From positions 4,431 through 68,430 of the forward strand of contig CAKNNA010000004.1 of NCBI GenBank assembly GCA_930989765.1: DNA of 64,000 nt, written 5' to 3'. The position numbers and the translations under genes are program-made. This document shows, one piece after another, positions 56,725 to 56,916 of the stretch. Positions within the stretch are counted from its first letter, which is position 1. Every line of letters begins with the position of its first letter. The notes beneath the pieces are model-generated. The model was given only the letters and a program-made list of their open reading frames with translations. It had not been told where the DNA came from and ran no database searches. Source of the DNA: an uncultured Clostridium sp. Lineage in GTDB: Bacteria > Bacillota > Clostridia > TANB77 > CAG-508.

Positions 56725-56916
56725 TAATTAAGTATAAAAATTAATTAATAATATAAATTCTATAGAATATAGCAATATAAACAATTCGAGCAATTCTTCC
56801 ACAAAATTTTTTTGACATTTTTCATTTAAAAATCATTTTACATATATTGACTAAATTTCTTGTTAATGCTATATTACATTTATATTTGTAAATTAATTAA
56901 TTTTTATACTTAATTA
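56725..56916. promoter_or_regulatory. candidate invertible promoter (inverton 2) upstream of the LRR protein gene
   Basis: Perfect 25-bp inverted repeats taattaagtataaaaattaattaat (56725-56749 and 56892-56916) flank 142 bp. That segment carries TTGACT (56847-56852), a 17-nt spacer and TGcTATATT (-10 at 56870-56875) on the plus strand, pointing away from the gene. Confidence 0.6.

Follow-up and report, generated by a model that had tools for sequence, protein, structure and literature searches.

Organization of the locus

The 64-kb window (the whole stretch of DNA that was analysed, with a G+C content of approximately 26%) carries on its minus strand an LRR gene (54634-56598), the 654-aa product of which combines a pilin-like N-terminal hydrophobic segment (KGITLMALVVTIIILLIL) with BspA-type LRR_5 repeats. 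Upstream of the start codon lie a leader (56599-56724, minus strand), with a TAAAA flank next to the arm, and a 192-bp unit, here called switch A, that is bounded by a pair of inverted repeats (IRs). The gene-proximal arm (56725-56749, plus strand) reads TAATTAAGTATAAAAATTAATTAAT, that is, TAATTAAG-TATAAAA-ATTAATTAAT, and the gene-distal arm (56892-56916, minus strand) is its exact reverse complement. Between the arms lies an interior of 142 bp (56750-56891), of which approximately 95 bp on the left are variable among homologous copies (see below) and the right part holds a promoter. Further out follow a perfect 22-bp-stem hairpin (56925-56972), the rplT terminator hairpin (56986-57029) and rplT itself (57056-57406), the 3' end of which converges on the switch A promoter. 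On the other side of the LRR gene, a terminator-like hairpin with a T-run (54551-54583, minus strand), read by eye, separates it from a second switch (switch B).

The rest of the window was read by eye as housekeeping genes (mutS2, ftsZ, tsf, rpsB, pyrH, frr, uppS, recG, lysS, fhs, gpr, xseA, nusB, fmt, def and priA). Two of these are split, priA (47166-49443) into a pair of ORFs (388 and 392 aa) that overlap, and recG (29957-31997) into ORFs of 215 and 459 aa with a 13-nt gap, which suggests assembly frameshift or stop errors, or real pseudogenes. A match to the L20 leader (58351-58486), upstream of infC, scored 31.9 bits against a gathering score of 58.7 and is in the expected, ordinary place.

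The presence of perfect 25-bp repeats around 142 bp, claimed in an earlier reading made from the sequence alone (the sequence-only reading), was confirmed both by reading the sequence and by a repeat finder, and the repeats are far beyond chance. Perfect IRs with arms of at least 14 bp and spacers of 50 to 300 bp occurred only four times in the window (arms of 41, 25, 22 and 15 bp), while in 60 composition-matched Markov simulations the longest arm averaged 7 bp, with a maximum of 16. The arm sequence, allowing up to 3 mismatches, was not matched in any of 100 dinucleotide shuffles. Each arm is internally palindromic (TAATTAA...TTAATTA), with half-sites around a 7-bp asymmetric centre, in the manner of a recombinase core site. 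At the junctions, the present orientation reads CCATTGAATTTTA + IR + AATATAAATTCTATAG, and a flipped segment would read CCATTGAATTTTA + IR + TTACAAATATAAATG. The search pattern offered by the sequence-only reading, AATTAAGYWAAAAATTAATTAA, proved one base short; run as AATTAAGNNAAAAATTAATTAA, it missed real copies because their centre is one base longer.

A separate element is formed by perfect 41-bp IRs (61275-61315 and 61451-61491) around an imperfectly palindromic spacer of 135 bp, located between gene 61558-62745 and spoIIM/xerD. The whole region of approximately 217 bp (61275-61491) folds as one long hairpin (RNA minimum free energy -113.6 kcal/mol, z = -17), and showed no promoter or terminator matches. 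It is present in some strains of the species and absent in others (intergenic gap of 371 nt versus 118-134 nt), and an 87% copy ends contig L046 of another metagenome-assembled genome (MAG), in a non-syntenic position. L046 was considered as a syntenic orthologue of the switch A locus and set aside, its similarity being confined to the switch, the palindrome and the 5' end of the gene. The 41-bp element looks like a MITE-like mobile element, of a different class from switches A and B.

Predicted promoter and terminators around switch A

In a sequence-level promoter scan, the best promoter-like site in the region was a sigma-70-type site on the plus strand, TTGACT-17-TGcTATATT (56847-56875; 10/12 positions, TG present), which points away from the LRR gene. 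On the minus strand near switch A the best site reached 9/12 without a TG, and the total number of promoter-like sites did not exceed that in shuffled sequences. The scan thus agreed with two observations of the sequence-only reading, namely a near-consensus promoter reading away from the gene and no comparably good one on the minus strand; its arithmetic for the inverted segment was also correct, placing the -10 element at 56766-56771 (minus strand), approximately 160 nt from the ATG at 56598. In the present orientation the left interior contains the reverse complement of TGCTATATT (56766-56774, minus strand), a weak extended -10-like element with a poor -35 that lacks conservation across the family (identity of 0.51 in the left interior). 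As it faces the LRR gene, the 'OFF' state may be leaky.

The 22-bp-stem hairpin into which the promoter had been said to read does exist and, lying downstream of rplT, scored in the scan as a minus-strand terminator. As a family-wide OFF-state terminator it was discarded, having been found only here and in a strain variant of the locus (contigs L013/L247). The rplT terminator hairpin has T-runs on both strands and probably also stops OFF-state transcripts from switch A. The 22-bp-stem hairpin is made of TGTCCATTT / AAATGGACA units, a smaller copy of which is found at 43403-43433, and in the strain variant it has grown to perfect 38-nt arms (L013 828-924); it may be a small repeated palindromic element doubling as a terminator. 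In an Rfam search of 54000-59000 all matches were sub-threshold, among them miRNA models matching the hairpin; neither a riboswitch nor any other Rfam family was found in the leader that separates switch A from the LRR gene.

A second switch and the genes behind the switches

A mismatch search with the switch A arm returned a third copy at 54433-54457, and thereby a second complete switch, 2.3 kb from switch A and upstream of the minus-strand gene 52982-54247. Switch B has arms ATTAAGCTAAAAAATTAATTAA, one gene-proximal, of the form ATTAAG-CTAAAAA-ATTAATTAA (54282-54303, plus strand), and one gene-distal (54434-54455, minus strand), with a predicted promoter (TTGACA-17-TGcTATCTT; 54388-54416, plus strand) that is OFF in the window. 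Behind it (51910-54247, minus strand) lie a gene for a 421-aa protein with a pilin-like N-terminus (52982-54247), for which an exact protein look-up gave no record, and an overlapping ORF of 364 aa (51910-53004).

The proteins encoded behind the two switches share an N-terminal module, in which a basic stretch is followed by K-G-I-T-L and a hydrophobic segment of approximately 20 residues. The sequence KG/ITLMA... has Ala, not Glu, at position +5, and so departs from the type IV prepilin motif G/F(I)TL(I)E; the only match was to NF007862 (E = 6.5e-4, 19.9 bits versus a cut-off of 138). Given the lack of Glu at +5 and a score far under the NCBIfam cut-off, the module is called 'pilin-like' here and is not treated as a demonstrated pilin.

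The two-ORF unit behind switch B is tandemly duplicated (49436-54247), with 52982-54247 and 51910-53004 in the first copy and 50457-51725 and 49436-50491 in the second. Each copy encodes a pilin-like-N-terminus protein (421 and 422 aa) and an overlapping ORF (364 and 351 aa) with a faint FGE-sulfatase-like match, and each pair could be either two coupled genes or one frameshifted gene. Only the first copy has a switch, the second being preceded by a terminator-like hairpin (approximately 51838-51890) without IRs.

In the co-occurring strain variant L013/L247 the IRs of switch A are identical (25/25), but the interior is not, and the place of the LRR gene behind them is taken by another pilin-like gene (248 aa + 364 aa; L247 7017-10193, compared with window 54247-57056). 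Many contigs of the species break at the rpmI-rplT junction. Together, the different gene and these breaks suggest that the cargo behind switch A is exchanged between strains.

Orientation of the switches in same-species assemblies

Independent metagenome contigs of the same species were gathered by exact-protein look-ups; the names of the records suggest the chicken caecum as their habitat. Switch B was found in both orientations. Seven contigs (L001-L005, L226 and L246) resembled the window, and in two of the nine (L006 and L007) the sequence matched window 54282-54455 flipped in silico, without a mismatch over 484 nt, such that the promoter faced gene 52982-54247 from approximately 70 nt upstream of the ATG. 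The two contigs end differently, yet could be two assemblies of one sample.

Switch A had the window orientation in all of the approximately 11 assemblies covering the locus, including the diverged strain L013/L247, and was flipped in none. If A were ON as often as B at consensus level (2/9), 0/11 would be expected by chance in approximately 6% of cases (a rough binomial estimate), which leaves switch A as either seldom ON in the samples covered or locked. One contig (L011) ending 2 nt past the distal arm was considered as an orientation break; these 2 nt match L013, which points to strain heterogeneity and gives no evidence of inversion.

The difference between the two switches (0 of approximately 11 assemblies against 2 of 9) speaks for the view that switch A, although truly one of the invertons, is effectively locked OFF, by counter-selection or by a context preventing synapsis, with the LRR gene silent or dependent on another, weak promoter; the weak extended -10-like element that faces it at present also fits this view. 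We regard this as unlikely. The arms are perfect over 25/25 positions and identical in the diverged strain, the promoter hexamers are intact, and the recombinase must be active in the species since switch B flips. Moreover, consensus assemblies give the majority state only, in which an ON subpopulation of 5-20% would be invisible.

A family of related switches in uncultured Clostridia

One genome per species was scanned with the motif ATTAAGNNNAAAAATTAATTAA. Paired arms, 163-167 bp apart from start to start, were found only in MAGs of related uncultured Clostridia (at least 12 pairs in BRZ_HP__bin93 and at least 6 in E13__bin139, with further arms exactly at contig ends); matches outside these MAGs were single and unpaired. 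A scan of JGI metagenomes with the same motif gave, among the matches listed, only single unpaired chance hits. Of the copies in the window (2) and in the related MAGs (at least 18), most are OFF in the consensus, which fits a repertoire in which each cell expresses few members.

All of the 21 copies that were aligned had one anatomy, consisting of an arm, approximately 95 variable bp, the promoter TATTGAC(T/A)-N17-TGnTATA, 16-20 bp and the second arm. Conservation is limited to the IRs and the promoter hexamers: the latter were kept in 21/21 copies, and mean pairwise identity was 0.91/0.92 for the two arms, 0.91 for the -35 and 0.86 for the extended -10, compared with 0.51-0.60 elsewhere. Target-site duplications or flanking direct repeats were found at none of the 21 copies. 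A gene with a pilin-like N-terminus abuts 16 of the 18 MAG copies, and in 15 of these 16 the promoter faces away from that gene. The gene-side outer flank is always TAAAA, as in the leader of switch A. In the remaining copy (L050), where the promoter faces the gene, this flank abuts the promoter-bearing arm, which identifies L050 as the flipped (ON) state and not as a different architecture.

At four of the copies (L024, L029, L039 and L060), the OFF-state promoter is directed towards an unrelated neighbour at a distance of 210-270 nt (murC-like, prmC-like, ldh-like or a condensation-domain-like ORF), the expression of which could also be modulated by inversion.

Inversion of orthologous and homologous switches

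The genes for the nearest homologues of the LRR protein (62-68% identity) are preceded by a variant switch with arms ATCATTAAG-TAACTAA-CTTAATGAT and the promoter TTGACAT...TGaTATTAT. In L242 and L243 the promoter of this orthologous switch faces the gene (ON), and in L244 and L227 it faces away (OFF); 76 nt of interior plus arm in L243 are 100% identical to flipped L244. A human-gut homologue with 45% identity has arms TTATTAAG-TTCCAAG-ATTAATAA, and the switch upstream of its gene is exactly inverted in L234 (0/223 mismatches), as is the next switch in L236. In L236, a single base differing between the arms kept its place, which means that the crossover took place further in than that position. 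Two contigs downstream of the P0030 gene (L232 and L234) fold back on themselves, running from the gene through the switch into the reverse complement of their own flank. Such a path is expected when reads hold both orientations, and these contigs look like assembly artefacts of mixed switch orientations, an indirect sign of active inversion and a caution regarding the quality of MAGs.

The inversions bear on two further explanations that dispense with a rearrangement of switch A. The repeats could be paired operators for a regulator, with the plus-strand promoter serving a target of its own (an antisense or small RNA). Internally palindromic arms such as these occur in many operators, and in several family members the outward promoter does aim at a housekeeping gene 210-270 nt off. 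Downstream of the switch A promoter, however, there are only a hairpin, a terminator and the convergent 3' end of rplT, the outward neighbours at different loci are not related to one another, and inversion of homologous copies was directly observed; paired operators are thus highly improbable. Still less credible is a MITE-like mobile element spread by transposition, with an outward promoter: it would account for a multi-copy unit (at least 20) of approximately 190 bp with conserved terminal inverted repeats, but the copies lack target-site duplications, always precede genes of a single paralogous family, invert exactly in place with flanks unchanged, and have diverged interiors (0.51) with conserved IRs and promoter, the opposite of what recent transposition produces.

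Putative core site and candidate recombinases

Three arm types follow one layout, xxATTAAG, a 7-bp asymmetric centre and NTTAATxx, so that each arm looks like a recombinase core site with putative half-sites ATTAAG and NTTAAT. Across switches and lineages the centres were TATAAAA, CTAAAAA, TTTAAAA, TTAAAAA, CAAAAAA, TTCCAAG and TAACTAA. Within a switch the centre was always identical in the two arms, its bases co-varying between them, and it often differed between neighbouring switches. Matching centres are required by tyrosine recombinases. The core-site layout and the matching 7-bp centres hint at an enzyme of this type, a serine invertase being the alternative. The differing centres of A (TATAAAA) and B (CTAAAAA) would disfavour recombination of A with B, which would invert or delete the LRR gene. 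The layout of half-sites and a 7-bp centre also supplies a motif for finding the family and for hunting its recombinase.

The sole recombinase in the window is an XerD-type tyrosine recombinase (59566-60447, minus strand) adjoining spoIIM, which scored 354.3 bits against the NCBIfam XerD equivalog TIGR02225, above the cut-off of 329.6. It is probably the housekeeping chromosome-dimer resolvase and a weak candidate for the invertase. It stays a candidate because Xer-like enzymes drive such inversions in Mollicutes (PMC2268961). No dedicated invertase was found in the 64-kb window, nor was a recombinase found in the flanks of related loci, including the 10-kb flanks of a human-gut homologue (P0106).

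In BRZ_HP__bin93, four pilin-like genes behind family switches are broken at one and the same conserved N-terminal codon (L053; L079 5841-6091; L081 1-301; L092 1-534; on a long contig, L245 5001-6746). The interrupting element starts with an integrase SAM-domain ORF of approximately 115 aa, followed on the long contig by Zn_Tnp_IS91 and Y2_Tnp domains, and looks like a site-preferring IS91-family insertion into the pilin-like gene family. The recombinase-like ORF behind these truncated pilin leaders had been considered as the invertase; its homologues are all SAM-domain-only ORFs of 40-116 aa, and the IS91 transposase domains that follow on the long contig show it to belong to an IS91-family insertion and not to be an invertase.

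A model for switch A and its relatives

The most probable reading, to which we assign a probability of roughly 0.8, is that switch A is a promoter inverton, in the OFF orientation in the window, that gates the LRR surface protein. The sequence-only reading had arrived at the same proposal, which is now supported by the flipping of switch B and of the orthologous and homologous switches, by the conservation of the family and by the absence of target-site duplications.

Under this promoter-inverton reading, a recombinase encoded outside the window would pair the 25-bp arms of switch A, and strand exchange within the centre TATAAAA would flip the 142-bp interior. In the OFF state, transcription from the sole strong promoter would leave in the direction opposite to the LRR gene and run into the hairpin and the terminator of rplT; these two structures would also block read-through from rplT, leaving the LRR gene insulated and silent or nearly so. 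In the ON state the predicted promoter, with its -10 at 56766-56771 on the minus strand, would lie approximately 160 nt upstream of the ATG and transcribe through the proximal arm into the gene, giving a leader of approximately 160 nt that starts with the arm sequence. Each copy in the family would gate a different surface protein with the common pilin-like N-terminal module.

More tentatively, and at slightly less than even odds, we suggest that uncultured low-GC gut Clostridia (from chicken caecum, wild-animal and human-gut samples) practise genome-wide combinatorial phase variation of the kind known for the Mycoplasma penetrans mpl genes. At least 20 homologous promoter invertons would be served by one master recombinase, each gating its own kind of adhesin domain (BspA-type LRR and FGE-like domains, among others) on a common pilin-like module, and the 7-bp centres would act as 'barcodes' limiting exchanges between switches by which genes would otherwise be deleted or inverted. 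If the promoter-inverton reading is confirmed, a large family of homologous promoter invertons would be added to the Clostridia, tied to an undescribed repertoire of pilin-like-anchored adhesins in commensals of the poultry, wild-animal and human gut. MAG annotation would then record one arbitrary state, mostly OFF, such that adhesin expression could not be read from the consensus, and contigs would break or be misassembled as fold-backs at the switches.

Comparison with known systems

To our knowledge, only a handful of unrelated switches, those of Clostridioides difficile, have been well studied in the Clostridia. A search of the full-text literature found no description of a Clostridia inverton family associated with pilin-like/LRR genes; large inverton catalogues may list such sites. 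The sequence-only reading had compared switch A with the C. difficile cwpV and flgB switches, a comparison that fails for the architecture with the promoter inside, for which fimS, the Bacteroides polysaccharide promoters and mpl are better analogues. In cwpV and flgB the promoter is fixed, and the switch, located between it and the gene, works by termination or post-initiation control; the present segment differs in having a strong predicted promoter inside it and only the rplT terminators upstream. The RecV-dependent switches of C. difficile (cwpV/Cdi1, flgB/Cdi4 and others) are intergenic elements of approximately 150-200 bp with IRs of approximately 21 bp that are mostly unrelated to one another (PMC5903667). 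They share with the present family a location upstream of surface-structure genes in a Clostridia genome, and there a remote tyrosine recombinase acts on several sites; the difference lies in the at least 20 homologous copies found here.

The fimS element of Escherichia coli is a single locus with 9-bp IRs and adjacent recombinase genes for FimB and FimE. As proposed for switch A, it is a short invertible segment with a sigma-70 promoter, from which a fimbrial/pilin-type adhesin gene is transcribed in one orientation only, whereas the present switches form a large family with no adjacent recombinase.

The capsular polysaccharide promoter invertons of Bacteroides fragilis are under the master serine invertase Mpi, according to PMC5903667, PMC2268961 and PMC10403206. 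Many dispersed promoter invertons with related IRs, presumably one remote master recombinase, and a heterogeneous surface in a gut commensal are common to both systems. The IR sequences are unrelated, however, single protein genes or small operons are controlled here in place of polysaccharide loci, and, unlike the serine enzyme Mpi, a tyrosine enzyme is hinted at by the core-site layout and matching centres.

In M. penetrans, the mpl (P35) lipoprotein genes have individually invertible promoters (Horino et al. 2003, as summarised in PMC2268961), for which Xer-like tyrosine recombinases are suspected. Both there and here, the members of a dispersed multigene family of surface proteins each have their own short, promoter-bearing segment flanked by IRs and are turned ON or OFF independently. 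The systems differ in their hosts (spore-forming low-GC Clostridia here, Mollicutes there), in their cargo (proteins with a pilin-like N-terminus and LRR_5 or other C-terminal domains, as against lipoproteins) and in the IRs, which are longer here (22-25 bp) and arranged as half-site, 7-bp centre and half-site. The closest known systems are the mpl genes of M. penetrans and the promoter invertons of Bacteroides, with a known device appearing in a new host and in front of a new gene family.
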